Positions 563 through 31,525 of a DNA stretch of 64,000 nucleotides are shown one piece after another (within the stretch, counting starts at the first letter, position 1; each line of letters opens with the position of its first letter). Below the pieces are notes generated by a model, which had not been told where the DNA came from, ran no database searches, and was given only the letters and a program-made list of their open reading frames with translations. The stretch lies in assembly GCA_010015585.1 (NCBI GenBank), contig ML975149.1; one strand, written 5' to 3'. The position numbers were made by a program, and so were the translations under genes. Origin of the DNA: Eremomyces bilateralis CBS 781.70 (taxonomy: Eukaryota).

Positions 563-2542
563 TCACCTGTGGCCTCTTTCGCGGGGCCGGGTTTGGTGGT
601 GGTAGGTTGGGGGGGTGTCGTCGTAGGCGATGCGGATTTCGTCGCTGTGGCGGGAGGGGTCGAGGTCAGGTGGGTGGTCGTGGGATCGTGGGTGCGACTT
701 GGGGCTGGTGTCGTGGTAGCCTGTGACGGCGTGGTGGATGGGGGTGGACTCGGGGCTGATGCTGCCTTGCTTCGTGTGGCGTAGGGAGCGCTGGCGGCCG
801 GATGACGGGGGTGTGTTCGGGAGTGGTTTATCGATTGGGCTCGGCCCGACCGGAGTCTTTGGGCTCGGTCCAGCAGGTGTGCGAGCGCTGGGAGTGCGTT
901 TGTGGGAGTGTGCGGGTGTGCGTGTCGTAGTGGAGCTTGTTCGGGTTGTCGCCGGAGATGTTCGTTGTGGGGTTGTAGAAGGAGGGGACACACGTCTTGA
1001 GGCTGTTCGTGATGGAGGACTTCCAGAAGAGCGACGGCGGAGTCTGGTTGTGGTGGATTGGGGTGATCGTTTCGAATCAGAGGGTTGTCGGGCGTGCCGG
1101 GGTTGTGTGGATGCCTGTGAGGTAGGGTAAATCGGCATGGGAATTGATGGTACTCCCACTGGCCGGGCGGTGGGCGGAATGTATGTGTAGGCATAGGACG
1201 CTGACACAACAGGGTCGTGCAGTGGACCAGAAGGTCGCGGATGACGCATAGACGGGAGTTGAACGGCAGCTGTTCGTGCTGGGCTTTCTGCAGTAGTGTC
1301 TCGCCTTGGAGAAGGTTTGGTGGTCACTGGAGCAGCCCGTGGTGATTCCCGAGACCGCGCTGGTGATGGCTGACTCGTTTGCGGCACCACGGGCTGTTGC
1401 ACTGCTCGTTCCGGTGTCGATTCTAGTGGCGTATGCTCTGATCTTGCAGTGCGCTCATTCTTTTTCCCTTTCCCTTGCGGCGTTCGCTGTTCTTCGCCCT
1501 CTGCATCTGGTTGGGGTGTCGGCTGCTCGCCAGGCGCAACTCGTCTCATCACGCCGCCGAGTAAGCCGACCAACCCTGCAACAACCTCAAACTCGGTGTC
1601 CGTCAACCCTTCGTCGGCGCGATATACCTCCCTAACCGCTCCTCGTGCGAGTCGCTTGGCCCCATCATAATCATGGGCGACATCCCACAAGAACGCGGAA
1701 TGCTCCAACGCGACCGAAAGTCGAAGGGGATGGGAGCCGGGAAGGAGAGTTGTGGATAGACTCGTCGCATGTGCGAATAGCGATGTTGTGGTCGGTATGT
1801 AGTTCAGAGCTGGAAGGATGAACGAGCTAGGATGTGGAGGAAGCGGTGAAAATCCCGGTGGTAGCCCTGGTGGCAATTGAGTTCGAGCTACTGAGCTTGG
1901 CCCCGCACCCGAAGTTGGAGTCGGAACCAGACCCGTGTTCTCGGGGCGTAGGGGAGTAATATTGGAGTATGGATTGGTGATATACGAGGCTTCCGACGTG
2001 ATGCTCGGGATTGGGTCTCGCAACTTCGTGCGCCCTTGACCATTGTTGGGAGAGTTGTCCTGAGTCGGGCCTCCAGATTTCCGTTTCTGGCCCGTGCTCG
2101 GCGTTCTTCCCTCCAAGGCCCCAGATCCAGTCCCTTGTGCTGTTGGCTTGCTTCCGGAGCCGGGCGAAGATCCTCCACCAATTGATGTCACTGGTGGATT
2201 GTTATGGAAGAGGCAAAAGATATGGTAGAAGCTTGCGCGTAGCTTTGCTGCTAGGACGCGTAATTCCGCACTATGATCTGCACGCTCGACGTACGGGAGT
2301 ACGCCGACCTCGAGGGTTGCAAGACCTTCGCGGCTTAACCACAAAATGTGATGGTAAAGGTTCAAGCTCTTGGTGTCTCGAGATGTGTCCAAGCGACGCA
2401 ACTTCCGGGCGCGGAACAATCGCCGAGAAAGGAGAACGGAGAGACCGAGGATTTGGTAGAGGGACGAGGAGAGGAGCGCATGGGACTGAGATAGCGCCGC
2501 GAGTTGGCCGAGATACCTTTGGTCAACATCAGAGGATGCCAT
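563..2542 (-). CDS. Fungal 14-3-3-like domain protein with a long Ser/Pro/Thr-rich tail; possible readthrough extension to 257
   Basis: Single long ORF (563..2629); likely start MASSDVDQRYLG at 2542. Motifs LRVLAAKLRASFYHIFC and LLPGSHPLRLSVALEHSAFLWD resemble 14-3-3 helices (HPIRLGLALNFSVFYYE). Confidence 0.75.
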   Translation of the reverse strand: MASSDVDQRYLGQLAALSQSHALLSSSLYQILGLSVLLSRRLFRARKLRRLDTSRDTKSLNLYHHILWLSREGLATLEVGVLPYVERADHSAELRVLAAKLRASFYHIFCLFHNNPPVTSIGGGSSPGSGSKPTAQGTGSGALEGRTPSTGQKRKSGGPTQDNSPNNGQGRTKLRDPIPSITSEASYITNPYSNITPLRPENTGLVPTPTSGAGPSSVARTQLPPGLPPGFSPLPPHPSSFILPALNYIPTTTSLFAHATSLSTTLLPGSHPLRLSVALEHSAFLWDVAHDYDGAKRLARGAVREVYRADEGLTDTEFEVVAGLVGLLGGVMRRVAPGEQPTPQPDAEGEEQRTPQGKGKKNERTARSEHTPLESTPERAVQQPVVPQTSQPSPARSRESPRAAPVTTKPSPRRDTTAESPARTAAVQLPSMRHPRPSGPLHDPVVSASYAYTYIPPTARPVGVPSIPMPIYPTSQASTQPRHARQPSDSKRSPQSTTTRLRRRSSGSPPSRTASRRVSPPSTTPQRTSPATTRTSSTTTRTPAHSHKRTPSARTPAGPSPKTPVGPSPIDKPLPNTPPSSGRQRSLRHTKQGSISPESTPIHHAVTGYHDTSPKSHPRSHDHPPDLDPSRHSDEIRIAYDDTPPTYHHQTRPRERGHR

Positions 2543-16807: not shown

Positions 16808-17557
16808 ATGTCTCACCCAACCGATCCCCCAATCGACCCCTCCCGCCGCTGGACCCTCACCGCTAGCCCCTCCTACATCGACGCCCGCAAATCCCTCTTC
16901 CAAGCCGAACTCACCCTCCGCTCCCAAATTGAGCACGTCGCCGCCCTCCGCCGCGCCCTCCCCCCGGGGCCCTTCCTTCCCCCCTACACCTTCACCGAAG
17001 GCCCCCGCGACCTCTCCGCCTCCGGCCCGTTTACCCATCCCACGCTCGCGGACCTAGCGTCCAACGGCCGCAGCCTGGTAATGTACCACATGATGTTCGG
17101 GCCCGACGACGAGAATGTGTGTCCGATGTGCGCGATGTTCGTGGACGGGTTGGAGGGGGCGGTGGGACATTTGGAGGAGCGGGTGAACGTGGTGGTATGT
17201 GCGGCGGCGCCCATTGAGAAAGTTCGAGAGTGGGCGAAGAGGAGGGGGTGGGGGAAGTTGCGGTTCGTGTCGAGTGCGGGAAGTGGGTTTAATCGGGACA
17301 TGGGGACGGAGGTGGAGAGGGAGGGNNNNNNNNNNGAGAGGGAGGGGGGGAGGATGGGGCAGGATGCGGGGGTGTCGGTGTTCCAGGGGGAGGAGGAGGG
17401 GGTGAGGCATTTGTATATGCAGAAGGGGGATTTTGGGCCGGGGGTGGAGAGGGGGTTAGATTTGTTGTGTCCGGTTTATAATGTGTTTGATTTGGTGCCG
17501 GAGGGGAGGGGGAATTGGTATGCTGGGAATGAGTACATGATGCGATCTGGTGTGTAG
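16808..17557 (+). CDS. DUF899 family thioredoxin-like protein (contains a 10-N gap at 17326-17335)
   Basis: VAALRRALPPG, LVMYHMMFGP, CPMC, KRRGW..LRFVSS...FNRD, FDLVPEGRG are characteristic of DUF899; intronless. Confidence 0.8.
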   Translation: MSHPTDPPIDPSRRWTLTASPSYIDARKSLFQAELTLRSQIEHVAALRRALPPGPFLPPYTFTEGPRDLSASGPFTHPTLADLASNGRSLVMYHMMFGPDDENVCPMCAMFVDGLEGAVGHLEERVNVVVCAAAPIEKVREWAKRRGWGKLRFVSSAGSGFNRDMGTEVEREXXXXEREGGRMGQDAGVSVFQGEEEGVRHLYMQKGDFGPGVERGLDLLCPVYNVFDLVPEGRGNWYAGNEYMMRSGV

Positions 17558-25418: not shown

Positions 25419-25513
25419 NNNNNNNNNNNNNNNNNNNNNNNNNNNNNNNNNNNNNNNNNNNNNNNNNNNNNNNNNNNNNNNNNNNNNNNNNNNNNNNNNN
25501 NNNNNNNNNNNNN
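25419..25513. other. Scaffold gap (run of N)
   Basis: About 95 consecutive n characters. Confidence 0.99.
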
Positions 25514-27451: not shown

Positions 27452-30430
27452 TCAAACGGCGAATTTCATTATCAATACTCGACCAGAAGAGTACCCAAAG
27501 CCGACCATGTTACCATGAACAGCAACTTTATCTGACCGGTACTCTGAGGGAAGCCATAGCACCCTCTCGCCATTGTAAAGGACCCATTGCTCCTCGACAT
27601 AGATGGACTGCGGAGAGCATGATCGGGTAGGAGCTAGGCCGCAAGAAGGACCTATACGGAACAATCCCCTATCAGCCTGGAGACATGAACCGTCGTCCGT
27701 AAACCAGAGACTGAAATGCATTGAGCTATTAGTCACTAGCGTCTGTAGTAGCTTCCCGGAGCCGACGTCCCACAGCTTGACCGTTGCGTCGTCAGGATCC
27801 GACGTCAGCATCTTGCCGTCCGGAAAGAAGGTCACGGCCTTTGCGTCGTCAGATACCGACGCCAGCGTCTTGCCGTCCGGAGAGAAGGCCATGGCCCTGA
27901 CCGAGCCCGAATGGCCTTTGAGCGTCTGCAGCGGCTTCCCGGAGCCGGCATCCCACAACTTGACCCTTGCGTCGTGAGATGCCGACGCCAGCGTCTTGCC
28001 GTCCGGAGAGAAGGACACGGCCGAGACAGGGCTAGAATGGCCTTTGAGTGTCTGCAGCGGCTTCCCGGAGCCGGGGTCCCACAGCTTGACCCTTGCGTCG
28101 TAAGATGCCGACGCCAGCGTCTTGCCATCCGGAGAGAAGGCCACGGCCGAGACCCGGCCCGAATGGCCTTTGAGCGTCTGCAGCGGCTTCCCGGAGCCGG
28201 CCTCCCACAGCTTGACCGTTTCATCGTAAGATGCCGACGCTAGTGTCTTGCCGTCCGGAGAGAAGGACACGGCCGAGACCGGGCCCGAATGGCCTTTGAG
28301 CGTCTGCAAGTGTGAACTCCAGTTTTCTGACACCTCGGACACACACGAGATAGAAGTTGGAACTTTATCCGAAAAATTCCTTCTAATAATACTCGTATTC
28401 GGACTAAATATTAGACCAGCGGAATATATTTGTAGCGGTGCTATTTCTAGAACCGGTCGGAAATTGAGAACAAAGCGTGTCGCATCATGTATTAACGCTT
28501 GCAAACTTGACTCAGCTGCCATCTTGTGTTCTTCCGAACTTCTTTCAATCTTAGGCGTAACGCTAGATTGAAAGGTCGATTTGAGCTTGTCATAAAGACT
28601 TTTTAGCTGCTGAACATCTCCTTTTTGCTCATCCTTAGAGGTTAGCTAGTGGTATAGCTAACACGCATTCAAAGCTGCTCACCAAAAATCCCGAATCTAG
28701 CATGTGGACCATAACAACTGCATCTGAAACACGGCCTAACAGTGCAAGTGCTTCAAGCCAATGAAGAAAGTGTTTTCGAAGGAAATTTTCAACGTTGTGG
28801 TAGTCATCAGTGTCTGCATCGCTTCGTTTGTAATGATGAACCCAGAACCTGCATGCGTACTGAACGTGACGTTGAATATGTCCGTCCACTTCGGTTCTCT
28901 CAGCTCGGACATGTCGGCTCCTGGAAGTCAAAGATTGCAAATATCGCGCCGTAAGTGCTGCGACATTACTCGAAGACAGTTCATGTACATCTCACGATGG
29001 ACCAATTTGTCATCGATGTAAAATTGAAAATTCGAGCATCTCTTTCGGTTAAGGAGGAAGTCACGGAACGATGGATGGAGCAAACGGACAGTACTTGACT
29101 CAGCCTCTGGCACATCAAGAACAGAATGCAAATTGGATAAGGTCCGATTCAAAGTCTTGACATCTTTTCCAAGTAGCCTGACAAGGTTTAACACGGATAG
29201 AGGCTCTGGAGAAATGATGATCGGTCCAACAACCTGTCGGAATAGCTCGCGCAACCGTAGAGTTTCTTCTTTGTCGTATTCTCCTCGGATAGAGTTGGTG
29301 AGAACGGTGGTGTATATCTCGTCAAGCTTGTGTGCTGGTTCAATCGTACGGCTGGCTTCATGTAAGAGAAGAGATAATCGGCCCTGCGCAAGCTGGCCGC
29401 CTTGTTCGATGAATCGACAGGCTGTTGCAGCCCAGATGAATAGCCCATCGGAGCTCCGGACTAGAAAAGTGATTGCACTCTCCTCCGACCAGTCAGCCTG
29501 AAGCTGATATTTCCGTCTGATAAGTCCGAGCTTGTTCCTCAAGAAAATAGAAATGTCGCGATCCACAATAGAAGGCTCAATACCATGAAGCACAAAGTCT
29601 TGGTGTTCGTCTTTATGTATTTGATTAAAGCCGTACCGGATCGGAACCTCAGGTCTGCTCGTCAGAAGCACCCGTAGCTGGACAACCTTTAGCGACCGCA
29701 CTTCGGCCAGAAGTTGCAGAATGATCTGAATATCATTCTGATCTTCACACTCATCGAGAGCGTCAATGACAAGGGCATATCTCGACCGACAATCCCTGTC
29801 GTCGAGGTTCGACAAGGGAACAAGAACGAGGTCCTGCCACTGATCGCGGAGAGACTGAGTTGCGATATCGCTGCGCTCCGATATGGCATCGCAAATTTTG
29901 CGCTTTAGACCCGGTATGATATTCGCAAGCTGGAATGCAACGGTTGTAACAAATTTTTCAGCATGTCTAACATCTCCGCCGCCCCGCGAGAAGAAGAAGC
30001 TGGCTCCTAGGGCTTTCTTTGCGGAGTAAGTGGCGGCCACTGTTTGGGCTATTGTAGACTTCCCAGTGCCGGCCAAACCACTCAGCCAAAAGATGCTTTG
30101 TGAGGTTTCGCCATCGACCCAATTGTATATGGCGTGGAGGAGATCGGTACGGGTTCCTGCGAGACAGGTTGGTTCGTGCTCCCGCTTGCGTGTGCTGAAC
30201 GGTGCGTCCACGGAAATGGGTAGGGTCTTCTGAAGTAAATCGTTGAGGTCTATGCTTTCAGTTAATCTGTCATCATCGCAAGTTCTAATGCCGAATTACT
30301 CACTTGAAGTAGACTCGCTGGGGGCAAAATTTAAAGTTCCACCAAGGTTGATACCAGCAAAGCTCTGGCCTCCATCGGTTGCGGACGTATTGTTGATGGC
30401 AAGATGGTGGGGTAAAGGGCCACTAGCCAT
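27452..30430 (-). pseudogene. NLR: N-terminal amyloid-like motif + NACHT + WD40 repeats (NWD/HET-E-like); premature stop and frameshift
   Basis: Exon 30430-30304; intron 30303-30250; CLAGTR, WLSGLAGTGKST (P-loop), LVIDALDEC (Walker B), TSRPE, LLHPSFRDFL; TGA at 28930-28928 plus a frameshift near 28900; intron 28682-28634; WD repeats GHS..V.AV.FSPDGKTLASAS.D..VKLW. Confidence 0.9.
27740..28310 (-). repeat. Near-identical 126-bp (42-aa) WD40 repeat array
   Basis: Three complete units LQTLKGHS..V.AV.FSPDGKTLASAS.D..VKLW..GSGKP plus one truncated/fused pair. Confidence 0.95.
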
Positions 30431-30736
30431 GAGGGGCTATCACCGCTGTTGTTCTGTGACTTTGAAGTTATTCGGCGATGACCTGTTATTCTCTCTTCCG
30501 TTGATATTGGTGTCATGTTCGTTGAGCAAAGTCGTGGTCAAGCTGGCTGGACTAGTGGCGTCAAGATGCTCGGGATTGTTTGCCGCAACCACTCTGTATC
30601 GCCTTATGGATAGCTGAAGTGCAGCCATTCGACCCCCAAATAAATAGAGATCTCTTGCCTCACCCATTGGCCATTCTCTCCTCCTGGTTTCAAATAATCA
30701 ATTCACACTTCTTTTTGACTTTTTCGTTTGAATGTA

Positions 30737-30790
30737 ATGGACCCTCCCAGCATCACCGCCTCAGTAGTGGGAATTGTCGCAAGGTGCCCC
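30737..30790 (+). pseudogene. Stub of a HeLo-like (HELL) effector gene, divergent from the NLR
   Basis: ATGGACCCTCCCAGCATCACCGCCTCAGTAGTGGGAATTGTC = MDPPSITASVVGIV, matching the MDPLSITASVVGI N-terminal helix of HeLo-like domains. Similarity is lost after about 15 codons and the frame stops at 30893-30895. Confidence 0.55.
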
Positions 30791-31525
30791 TTTTCATGTT
30801 TCCAGATCCTGCTTAGTCATCACCATCTCACAAGAATCATCATAGATTGCGTGGGTGATGGGCTGATTGAGCTATCCATCTATCTATCACAATGAAAAGA
30901 GCAAGTGTCACATCAAAGGCTATGACCGGGATGAATTCCCTTGCTGGAGTCAACGGGTTATGACTCTGGGGAGGCAAACTCAAACCTTTAGTCAGTGATG
31001 AGAGGTAGCGTCCCGGGAATGGACCCTAGACATCCATGAGGGCAGCAGCTCCAGCGTTATATAGTTACAAAGAGAATTACTGGTGGCGGTTGATATTCTA
31101 CTTCTCGGTGGAAAGCCCCAACTTGATCTGCAAGCACACGGTGCCCAGACGCCATGCCTCCATATTTGAAGTAGAGACGATGAACAAGGCGAAGGCAACA
31201 TGGATAGAGATAGTCGAATTCAGTTTCTATTTATACAGAGAGTGCAATGAAACAAAAACATATAATGCCGTATCCTCTAGGTTCACTCCCTGCTACAGCC
31301 TCTTCGACTGTGGATAATTGGGCGCCTATGGACACCGAGTCCTCCTCTCCTGCACAGTGGTTTCCCACGTCACTGCAGGAGTCTCTCGGGTCTCTTCTCC
31401 ACCTCAATCACAATGAAGAACTCCAAAGAAAAAAACAATAACGCCGATATATTCGTACAAGCGCGTTATGAATGCAAGAAGAGATCAACTCCGGCCAAAC
31501 GGATCATGCTGCATGGTGGAGCATG

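Follow-up and report, generated by a model that had tools for sequence, protein, structure and literature searches.

The window analysed here, a 64 kb stretch of the genome of Eremomyces bilateralis CBS 781.70, carries on its minus strand an NLR gene whose first exon (30430..30304, minus strand) is 127 nt long. Read directly from the ATG at 30430, this exon comprises 42 codons plus one base and translates as MASGPLPHHLAINNTSATDGGQSFAGINLGGTLNFAPSESTS, which holds the whole N-terminal extension of the protein. TGA TAG stands in frame immediately 5′ of the ATG, and an initiator methionine occupies the matching place in the related loci L001 and L003 and in the proteins P0003 and P0004. Intron 1 (30303..30250, minus strand; 54 nt, GTGAGT...TTAACTG...CATAG) has a length divisible by three and, when read unspliced, contributes an in-frame TAA at 30298..30296; the homologous intron in L003 shifts the frame and contains a stop. 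Exon 2 begins at 30249 and continues in frame as ...S-N-LNDLLQKTLP... into the NACHT region.

The splicing was examined using run X1, which is recorded only as 'RNA? (a guess)' and was used only for what its contigs bridge; we treated it as cDNA because two of its joints are exact GT..AG joints. A 2634-letter contig omits exactly 30250..30303 (CT..AC ends on the plus strand; joint 30249->30304), while a second contig omits 28633..28681. Over the 42 residues the public protein P0001 (897 aa, a hypothetical protein from Eremomyces bilateralis CBS 781.70) matches at 100 % identity, and its junction is the same. The direct reading, P0001 and the X1 joint thus confirm a first exon of 127 nt spliced in frame to NACHT, as an earlier note on this DNA had claimed. 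That note had also described the exon as missed, which is true of a plain ORF list but not of the public annotation, as the exon is already part of the P0001 model. Pfam places PF24883 (NPHP3_N/NACHT, 2.5e-32) directly after the 42 residues and returns no family within them at E<=1; we therefore agree with the earlier note that no HET, HeLo, PNP or SesB domain precedes NACHT.

The remainder of the gene is damaged. From 30249 to 28931 (28931..30249, minus strand), exon 2 encodes the NPHP3_N/NACHT NTPase with its P-loop GLAGTGKST (PF24883 as above; PF05729, 6e-09) and part of the helical region, and it then meets a nonsense codon, TGA, after ...RRDICNL (28930..28928, minus strand), where L001, L002 and L003 have GGA or CGA. 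Thirty nucleotides away is a 1-bp deletion that shifts the frame (28899/28898, minus strand; GAGCTGAG-AGAA vs GAGCTGAGCAGAA in L001, L002 and L003). Further downstream are a 49-nt intron (28681..28633, minus strand; GTGAGC..TAAG, joint 28632->28682 in run X1) and the last exon (27452..28632, minus strand), which encodes a WD40 array (five Pfam stretches; PF00400, 6.1e-58) and a stop codon and lies 3′ of the premature stop. NACHT and WD40 are thus both present in the DNA but not in one frame, with the TGA and the 1-bp deletion between them. Both lesions are also in the RNA, as the X1 contig over 28682..29237 shows 0 differences and no gap. By RIP indices, the locus bears no sign of repeat-induced point mutation.

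The public model deals with this interval by means of an 'intron' at 28814..28995 (182 nt, minus strand), which skips both lesions together with ~60 residues conserved in the relatives; P0001 accordingly reads ...DDKLVHHTDDYHNV..., whereas the relatives retain REMYMNC...QYACRFWVYHY. The spliced X1 contig passes straight through 28814..28995. The 182-nt intron of the public model therefore hides two inactivating lesions and is unsupported by the contig, although a minor isoform removing the same stretch may be compatible with the contigs. Such an isoform, minor or regulated, would be the basis for a cassette that is still functional, with an 897-aa r0-NACHT-WD40 receptor whose r0 motif (described below) would act in trans on an HRAM2 effector encoded elsewhere in the genome. 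The modelled intron does have GT..AG borders, its removal restores the frame, the gene is transcribed with its two other introns spliced, the r0 exon is intact, and suspected signalling between non-adjacent genes is reported in PMC9815663. We nevertheless consider this unlikely, as the spliced contig shows no skip and the stretch to be removed codes for residues conserved in all relatives. P0001 was, in addition, the only E. bilateralis protein met in the motif and effector searches, a point of little weight since those searches depend on shared words.

On the opposite strand, divergent from the NLR gene, lies the relic of a HeLo-like (PF17111) effector gene (30737..30892, plus strand). It begins MDPPSITASVVGIV..., passes into decayed sequence and stops after 52 codons, with no r1/r2 pseudo-repeats; about 16–35 codons of the effector N-terminus are recognisable. 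tblastn with the effectors P0045-P0050 matched the window only at the relic (11–14 identities over the first 13–17 residues), with the P0050 alignment reaching 30859 (E 0.005), and a whole-effector profile likewise matched the window only at 30719..30892 (E 0.052). A profile of the effector C-terminus run against 2256 six-frame segments of the 64 kb found nothing better than E 1.3, Pfam gave no match to the 52-aa relic, and the effector pieces of L002 and L003 returned nothing below E 0.5 against the window (tblastn). Signalling from the NLR to an adjacent effector, which the earlier note cited as known for nwd2/het-S, cannot hold here as it does there, given an effector reduced to a relic and an NLR with a stop and a frameshift in its RNA. 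An adjacent effector with two pseudo-repeats is absent from the window, but occurs in L003 with P0044 and in published pairs; adjacency of the cognate effector is common, not obligatory (98/155).

The part of exon 1 that links the NLR to such effectors is a 21-residue unit, residues 8–28 (30347..30409, minus strand; HHLAINNTSATDGGQSFAGIN), a putative HET-s-related amyloid motif. These residues share 16/21 identities with two r0s in the supplement of PMC4518210 (rows Aspfu1 and Lopmy1) and 13–15/21 with three further r0s printed there, one of which (Aaoar1) is identical to residues 8–28 of P0038, itself among the proteins of the motif family. In a 27-sequence alignment F24 is invariant and Q22, G26, N28 and G31 are conserved at >=90 %; G26 is motif position 19 when residues 8–28 are numbered 1–21, in the register in which the published r0s are printed. 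Over the 21-residue core, the window and L003 differ with pN 0.061 and pS 0.494, a substitution pattern indicating that the motif is under purifying selection. The earlier note had left its reading dependent on whether the motif is kept at homologous NLR N-termini, and by both measures it is.

HRAM motifs were recognised by hydrophobic residues at positions 5, 8, 10, 16 and 18, which here read I, T, A, S and A (3/5 hydrophobic). T and S at positions 8 and 16 count against the assignment. Among the published r0s of the matching set, however, position 8 is likewise T or I and position 16 is S, T or I, so that the departure is shared by the family. An HRAM r0 was further taken to occur once, at the N-terminus of an NLR, with few D, E and K residues and relatively more S and H. 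The unit at residues 8–28 occurs once and is followed by NACHT; D19 is its sole charged residue, and H and S are each present twice. Neither a six-frame regular-expression search nor the r0 profile run over 2256 six-frame segments of the window found a second copy outside exon 1 (next best E 1.7).

A HMMER search of 1.84 billion representatives with a 3-sequence profile retrieved 29 proteins (E<=1e-3), which, together with the low pN, marks the motif as no chance string. Short first-exon ORFs of 43–136 aa make up 28 of these; the other, P0024, a 1281-aa repeat protein, was taken as spurious. No effector was among the 29. A word-based search of longer proteins with the 27-sequence profile gave 24 matches, and all 10 of those exceeding 400 aa bear NACHT or NB-ARC, with no effector among them. 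P0041 (NACHT-WD40, NOD 24 % identical) and P0042 (NACHT-ANK, NOD unalignable) share 12–13/21 r0 identities with the window, and P0043 (NB-ARC, NOD unalignable) is a weaker match at 9/21. Judged by these alignments, the motif recurs on three NLR architectures, NACHT-WD40, NACHT-ANK and NB-ARC.

The Pfam families HET-s_218-289, Ses_B and NACHT_sigma match neither the 42 residues nor the 27 family members, on which Pfam at E<=10 finds only two unrelated weak matches (POU2AF2 and MICSWaP), and the motif profile has 0 matches at E<=10 among PDB sequences. This lack of any Pfam or PDB sequence match, along with the abundance of G, N, S and T in the stretch, would suit a low-complexity leader that neither forms amyloid nor signals and resembles HRAM in composition only. 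Such a leader would hardly be conserved position by position across NLRs with unrelated NOD domains, show pN well below pS or share 16/21 identities with the r0s of published NLR/effector pairs, and we consider it very improbable; the comparison with the effector repeats, which follows, also speaks against it.

The link between r0 and effectors was reached through the neighbouring gene of L003 and the supplement of PMC4518210, whose r0s come from NLRs adjoining HeLo-like proteins with two C-terminal pseudo-repeats. The effector pseudo-repeats read TGQKIKGVKATNNSSALAGFI (r1) and IDQDISDVTADNWS.A.AGVI (r2), and in the effectors of the matching PMC4518210 rows position 3 of r1/r2 is Q and position 19 is G, the loop is 8 residues long and the tail is of the aromatic/GG type. 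The r0-family profile matches r1 (5.8–8.1 bits) and, more weakly, r2, in register, in P0044, P0045, P0046 and P0050. Composition-preserving shuffles equalled the real score in 0, 0, 3 and 0 of 3000 cases, respectively, and the best of 57 control windows reached 1.5 bits. In absolute terms the r0-to-r1 similarity is weak (6–12 bits, 5/21 identities), too weak for database-scale detection. The motif thus does match an effector C-terminus, the second point on which the earlier note had made its reading depend. Its HRAM-like reading is borne out by the 16/21 identities with published r0s, and the pattern that it had given, I-x4-A-T-D/N-x5-A-G, occurs literally in published r1. Taken together, these comparisons support the assignment of the exon-1 motif to the HRAM r0s of an already published class.

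From position 3 and from Table 1 of PMC4518210, the rows of its supplement being unlabelled, we infer that this r0 set belongs to subgroup HRAM2. HRAM2 was recognised by r1/r2 that have Q at position 3 but not at 16 or 18; in the published rows as well as in P0044-P0046 and P0050, r1 reads TGQ... and r2 IDQ..., with A and A at positions 16 and 18, while r0 itself has L at position 3. Aspergillus fumigatus, a source of such rows, is listed with HRAM2 only (PMC4518210, Table 1). The same paper notes a trend for HRAM2 r0 to lie closer to r1 than to r2, and the r0 profile here agrees. The label NLR34 of PMC9815663 was also considered for this r0; NLR34 is mostly from Fusarium and Tuber. E. bilateralis is absent from the readable supplements searched (PMC4518210, PMC9815663), and in those of PMC9815663 neither the organism nor the accessions nor the motif words occur. 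Among the listed papers that contain the term 'HRAM2', none is, by its title or abstract, an experimental study of this subgroup.

The layout of the cassette can be seen in relatives. In L003 the same r0 is accompanied by a piece of a divergent PF17111 gene (30.8 bits against a cut-off of 27.2); this piece is 99 % identical to P0044, at the C-terminus of which r1/r2 are present. The r0 of L002 is another one, and the divergent PF17111 gene there encodes two repeats that match it. L002 and the window share 83 % DNA identity downstream of a point just inside exon 2, whereas upstream of this shared part L002 has a different r0 (..QHISDVSINNDSQAAVGIF..) and a different PF17111 effector, the r2 of which matches that r0. 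One tentative interpretation, less likely than not, is that the r0 exon and the divergent HeLo-like effector form a single exchangeable cassette, joined to the rest of the NLR at the short intron after exon 1, and that in the window receptor and executioner have decayed together, possibly because an r0-NACHT product lacking WD40 and independent of ligand made the effector costly to keep.

We consider it probable, at roughly three in four, that the window preserves what is left of an nwd2/het-S-type amyloid signalling cassette of two genes, with a NWD2-like NLR bearing an HRAM2 r0, and that the cassette has decayed. By analogy with the HET-S/NWD2 paradigm, ligand binding to the WD40 array of intact relatives would lead to NACHT oligomerisation, upon which the r0 units would cluster and fold into a beta-solenoid-like amyloid nucleus. 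This nucleus would template r1 and r2 at the C-terminus of the HeLo-like protein encoded by the divergent neighbour, and the templated protein would act as a membrane-damaging cell-death executioner. At the present locus the NLR message appears to be transcribed and spliced, but beyond residue 482 it is interrupted by a nonsense codon and shifted out of frame, so at most a WD40-less r0-NACHT protein would be made. This copy of the cassette looks defunct. The sequence and RNA comparisons show the exon and intron, the identity of the motif to published r0s and its conservation, the effector relic, and the two lesions in both DNA and RNA; amyloid folding, templating and loss of function are what we infer.

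The truncated product (482 aa, r0 and NACHT with no WD40) could instead be made and be active, either seeding amyloid independently of ligand or serving as a decoy. PMC4344463 describes a WD-repeat-less NWD2 that, strongly expressed in yeast, bypasses the ligand requirement, and the NLR transcript is found here at contig depths similar to those of its neighbours. Such a product would, however, have no visible target, since only a relic lies next door and the 64 kb show no r1/r2. Its premature stop also lies upstream of a spliced intron, a position that usually marks a message for decay, and two lesions 30 nt apart resemble neutral decay. Activity of the truncated protein is thus unlikely, slightly more so than a rescuing splice isoform, and we retain the decayed cassette as the preferred reading.

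On that reading, the locus opens no new kind of system and is a new, probably decayed member of a known one. It adds a Dothideomycete (Eremomycetales) instance to the published class of NLR/effector amyloid signalling, and, as a natural case of both partners decaying together, may help to ask how costly cell-death cassettes get lost. Lesions hidden in a public gene model matter for counts of NLR repertoires, and the r0 set on three NLR architectures is a ready alignment for the HRAM2 subgroup.

The closest known counterparts are the HRAM2 NLR/HeLo-like pairs of Daskalov, Dyrka & Saupe 2015 (PMC4518210), for example Aspfu1 (r0 HQVSINNTSATDGGQTFAGVN), Lopmy1, Clagr3, Aaoar1 and Ophdi1. Their r0s share 13–16/21 identities with that of the window and, as here, occur only once, at the N-terminal end of a NACHT NLR, in a divergent gene layout; their effector family is the one whose start, MDPLSITAS.VGI..., survives beside the window NLR. 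The window departs from those pairs in that its effector survives as a relic lacking r1/r2 and its NLR reading frame is interrupted.

The earlier note had suggested scans for HRAM, PP, sigma and PUASM, of which only HRAM fits the motif. FNT1/HELLF (HRAM5) and PNT1/HELLP (PP) share the same logic, in which an N-terminal NLR motif templates a HeLo-like protein. HRAM5 has Q at position 16, where the window family has S (r0) or A (r1/r2). The PP core NxGxQxGxN is absent, and the regular expression N.G.Q.[GN], run in six frames, misses exon 1 (DGGQSFAGIN). PUASM and sigma are likewise short G/Q/N-rich motifs at NLR N-termini; FxGxGxQxxGxGxF of PUASM, a motif that goes with PNP_UDP effectors, is absent from the 42 residues and the paired effectors are PF17111 rather than PNP_UDP, while the sigma motif spans ~40 residues and its Pfam models (NACHT_sigma, Ses_B) give, as noted, no match.

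With NWD2/HET-S of Podospora anserina (HRAM1) the window shares a NACHT-WD40 receptor, a 21-residue r0 as sole N-terminal module and adjacent, divergent genes. The two differ in their motifs, with N at position 3 in HET-s and Q at position 3 in r1/r2 of the window family, and in their effectors, HeLo (PF14479) in HET-S and HeLo-like (PF17111) in the window family. PMC4344463 describes nwd2 as a pseudogene in all wild het-s strains, so that a pseudogene on the NLR side is common to both systems. In Podospora, however, the effector side persists as the het-s prion, whereas in the window the effector is the more degraded partner.

The NLR, a NACHT-WD40 receptor on the minus strand, opens with a 127-nt first exon (30430..30304) whose ATG lies at 30430 and which, by direct reading, encodes MASGPLPHHLAINNTSATDGGQSFAGINLGGTLNFAPSESTS; a TGA and a TAG are found in frame immediately 5′ of this ATG. 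A 54-nt intron follows (30303..30250, minus strand), bounded by GTGAGT (5′) and CATAG (3′) and containing a branch-like TTAAC, and exon 2 continues in frame from 30249 on the minus strand into the NACHT region; an unspliced reading of intron 1 meets a TAA within it. The 42 residues of exon 1 returned no Pfam family at E≤1, and NPHP3_N/NACHT (2.5e-32 and 6e-09) begins immediately after them; hence, a HET, HeLo, PNP or SesB domain is absent, as the earlier note had proposed. The last exon encodes five WD40 stretches (Pfam, 6.1e-58). P0001, the public 897-aa model of this gene ('hypothetical protein', Eremomyces bilateralis CBS 781.70), starts with the same 42 residues (100 % identity) and has the same exon 1 junction. 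The description of a short first exon spliced in frame to the NACHT domain is therefore upheld by direct reading, by the P0001 junction and by a matching skip in the sequencing run X1; the claim that the exon had been missed holds for the ORF track but not for the public annotation, where P0001 already includes it. A methionine occupies the same start position in the relatives L001 and L003 and in the proteins P0003 and P0004, and in L003 the homologous intron shifts the frame and holds a stop.

Run X1, the single public run covering the stretch, is recorded only as a guessed RNA run. We took it as cDNA on account of two exact skips in its contigs (30250..30303 and 28633..28681), each bounded by GT..AG in the minus-strand sense. 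The contig bridging intron 1 comprises 83 letters of exon 2 and then stays collinear with the genomic sequence from 30304 to past 31600; within it, exon 1 has no additional exon spliced on at its upstream side, though a contig spanning two genes is no proof of a single transcript. Further contigs match the NACHT region at 95–99 %, their differences falling in clusters (29627–29732 and 30071–30115), so at least one close paralogue of the NLR is probably expressed in E. bilateralis.

A profile built from three N-termini matched 29 proteins among 1.84 billion cluster representatives (E≤1e-3). All but one are motif-bearing ORFs of 43–136 aa (28/29), most of which look like first exons called by intron-blind gene finders; the remaining match, a 1281-aa repeat protein, was regarded as spurious. 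The motif is conserved in a 27-sequence alignment (consensus M.S..LPH.L.I.GTSATDGGQ.FAGINLGTINYA): F24 does not vary at all, and conservation is at least 90 % for Q22, G26, N28 and G31. When longer proteins were searched by shared words, 24 matches came back, and those exceeding 400 aa are all NLRs (10/10). They include NACHT-WD40 proteins of Aaosphaeria arxii (P0038), Cladonia borealis (P0035) and Delitschia confertaspora (P0041), a NACHT-ANK protein (P0042) and an NB-ARC protein (P0043). The 21-residue core (r0, residues 8–28, HHLAINNTSATDGGQSFAGIN) keeps 12–13/21 positions on P0041, whose NOD is 24 % identical, and on P0042, whose NOD is unalignable, with a weaker 9/21 on P0043 (NOD likewise unalignable); comparing the window core with that of L003 gives a pN of 0.061 and a pS of 0.494. 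Judged by these comparisons, r0 behaves as a shuffled, selected signalling module and not as a chance leader. Separately, the 79-aa first-exon ORF P0015 carries two tandem r0-like units (..IADASATDGSQNLSGINYGT.. and ..LNITGTSTMGGAQGFSGINYGT..). The usual M-S-x-x-LP start stands ahead of the second unit, and the tandem may reflect either duplication of r0 or a pseudo-copy lying upstream of it.

Several amyloid motif families were considered for exon 1. The core NxGxQxGxN of the PP motif and the FxGxGxQxxGxGxF of PUASM, as defined in the accessible text of PMC9815663, are both absent. The sigma motif spans some 40 residues, and its Pfam models were unmatched by the window peptide and 27 family members; the HET-s_218-289 Pfam model likewise matched neither. 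According to the available text of PMC4518210, PF11558 matches only 38/155 double-repeat proteins. A motif profile search of PDB sequences returned nothing at E≤10.

The link between the window r0 and an effector comes from gene neighbours in relatives. L003, whose N-terminus is the same as that of the window, has a divergent gene piece ~160 nt upstream that scores 30.8 bits against PF17111 (cut-off 27.2; 'HeLo-like' in papers, PigL_N in current Pfam) and is 99 % identical to P0044. The P0044 homologues P0045, P0046 and P0050 are HeLo-like proteins of 271–332 aa with two C-terminal pseudo-repeats, r1 (TGQKI[KN]G[VI]KATNNSSAL[AT]GFI) and r2 (I[DN]QDISDV[ST].DNWS[VI]AVAGVI), with 8 residues between them and a tail containing W/GG after r2. 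The effector copy of L003 (L003:2–289, minus strand, and protein P0044), which adjoins an NLR with a window-type r0, looks damaged too: two parts present in P0045, P0046 and P0050 are missing, the N-terminal helix MDPLSITAS.. and the segment DRWKIGLFG..RIKTF, and its r2 has R in place of the position-19 Gly of the others (..SVAVARVIKN..).

The r1 and r2 repeats of P0045, P0046 and P0050 are given as motif 1 and motif 2 of HRAMs (HET-s-related amyloid motifs) in the supplement of Daskalov, Dyrka & Saupe 2015 (PMC4518210). Among the supplement rows compared here, the window r0 is identical to the adjacent-NLR r0 at 16/21 positions for Aspfu1 (HQVSINNTSATDGGQTFAGVN), 16/21 for Lopmy1 (DHLAIHNTSATEGSQTFAGIN), 15/21 for Clagr3 (RHLHIQGTSASDGSQSFAGIN), 14/21 for Aaoar1 (HSLNIHGISATDGAQIFAGIN, identical to P0038 residues 8–28) and 13/21 for Ophdi1 (RSLYVHGTSATNGGQSFAGLN). 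In the numbering of that paper, it has G at 19 and I, T, A, S and A at 5, 8, 10, 16 and 18; with one charged residue and two histidines, it agrees with the description there of r0 units as poor in charge and rich in S and H. The r0-family profile matched r1 of four effectors at 5.8–8.1 bits and r2 more weakly, in register (shuffles reaching the real score: 0, 0, 3 and 0 of 3000; highest score among 57 control windows of these effectors: 1.5 bits), and a closer likeness of r0 to r1 than to r2 is the trend reported for HRAM2 (PMC4518210). Reading the exon 1 motif as an HRAM was thus correct, and the pattern given in the earlier note, I-x4-A-T-D/N-x5-A-G, is literally r1 of this effector family. 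As for class, r1 and r2 carry Q at position 3 and lack it at 16 and 18, the mark of HRAM2, which is also the only group listed for Aspergillus fumigatus, the source of two such rows (PMC4518210, in the portions available); we infer that the window r0 family belongs to HRAM2, a label that the supplement rows do not themselves carry. Literature searches under the term HRAM2 found no experimental work, and the organism and its accessions are absent from the text-readable supplements of PMC9815663.

Beside the NLR, a plus-strand ORF beginning MDPPSITASVVGIV starts at 30737, ~306 nt upstream of the NLR start. It shares 11–14 identities over its first 13–17 residues with the MDPLSITAS[IV]VGIT start of P0045–P0050; the P0050 alignment reaches 30859 with an insertion (E 0.005 in the six-frame window), and a stop closes the ORF after 52 codons. 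This ORF was the only match of a whole-effector profile (E 0.052), a profile of the effector C-terminus gave no match with an E below 1.3 in the 64 kb (2256 six-frame segments), and only ~630 nt remain before the next gene; the executioner gene here is therefore a stump without r1/r2. Motif and effector searches, which depend on shared words and so give weak evidence, returned no E. bilateralis protein besides P0001, and an unlinked HRAM2 effector or a second r0-bearing NLR may lie elsewhere in the genome. Just 3′ of the relic, a small ORF (30871–30960, plus strand, ending ..SKAMTGMNSLAGVNGL*) allows an HRAM register by eye (K9, A10, L17, A18, G19) and scores only 3.8 bits with the r0 profile (E 5.6, among 16 listed matches from 2256 segments); it may be the last trace of a repeat, or chance.

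The NLR itself carries two lesions on the minus strand relative to L001, L002 and L003: a nonsense codon (TGA, 28930..28928; GGA or CGA in the relatives) and a 1-base loss between 28899 and 28898. A run X1 contig spans 28682..29237 with zero differences and zero gaps; as its 49-nt intron is removed, it derives from processed RNA, and both lesions are therefore real and in the message. P0001 restores the frame by calling 28995..28814 (minus strand, 182 nt) an intron, deleting ~60 residues conserved in all relatives. The spliced contig reads through this segment, a rare isoform being still compatible with the contigs, and the protein described by P0001 is thus probably never produced. On the sequence as it stands, residue 482 is the last to be translated, which would yield r0 and NACHT but no WD40 sensor. 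No RIP-like dinucleotide bias was detected at the locus. By self-matches, the WD40 units at 27738–28308 (minus strand) share ~80–90 % DNA identity and one is shortened (..DDAKAVTFFPDGKMLTSDPDDATVKLWD..); highly similar WD40 repeats also occur in nwd-type genes. The assembly has N runs at 17326–17335 (10 bases) and 25419–25513 (95 bases).

The metagenomic relative L002 has an NLR body 83 % DNA-identical to the window from 30209 downward, with a different first exon (..ITQHISDVSINNDSQAAVGIFYG..) and a different divergent PF17111 gene (9e-08, 47-nt intron), suggesting that the r0 exon and the effector were swapped as one unit. Here (L002:803–2201), the effector lies at ~1647..803 on the minus strand and the NLR starts at 2028 on the plus strand; the effector C-terminus has two repeats (QTIRGINTEDSEVRLGM.. 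and QQSITDVTSKNKSKVTIGIW), and r0 and r2 have 8/21 positions in common, in register, by eye.

Under the NWD2/HET-S paradigm (PMC4344463; PMC9815663, as far as accessible), the WD40 array of an intact relative would sense a ligand, NACHT oligomerisation would gather the r0 units into a beta-solenoid-like nucleus, and this would template r1/r2 of the neighbouring HeLo-like protein, leading to membrane damage. For the window, the module, its kinship and its context are seen directly, and the steps from ligand to membrane are presumed by analogy. At this locus the pathway has probably lost both executioner and sensor. Motifs of this class, paired with the same effector family, have been in the literature since 2015 (PMC4518210); what is new, if modest, is a member from the Eremomycetales, the decay seen in it and a gene model by which that decay is hidden. 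Loss of the effector may have come first, with drift of the NLR after it, or the effector may have become costly once the NLR was truncated and ligand-independent; in the sections available of PMC4344463, NWD2 without WD repeats is ligand-independent when strongly expressed in yeast. The same source offers a precedent for decay on the NLR side, reporting that nwd2 is a pseudogene in every wild het-s strain of Podospora.
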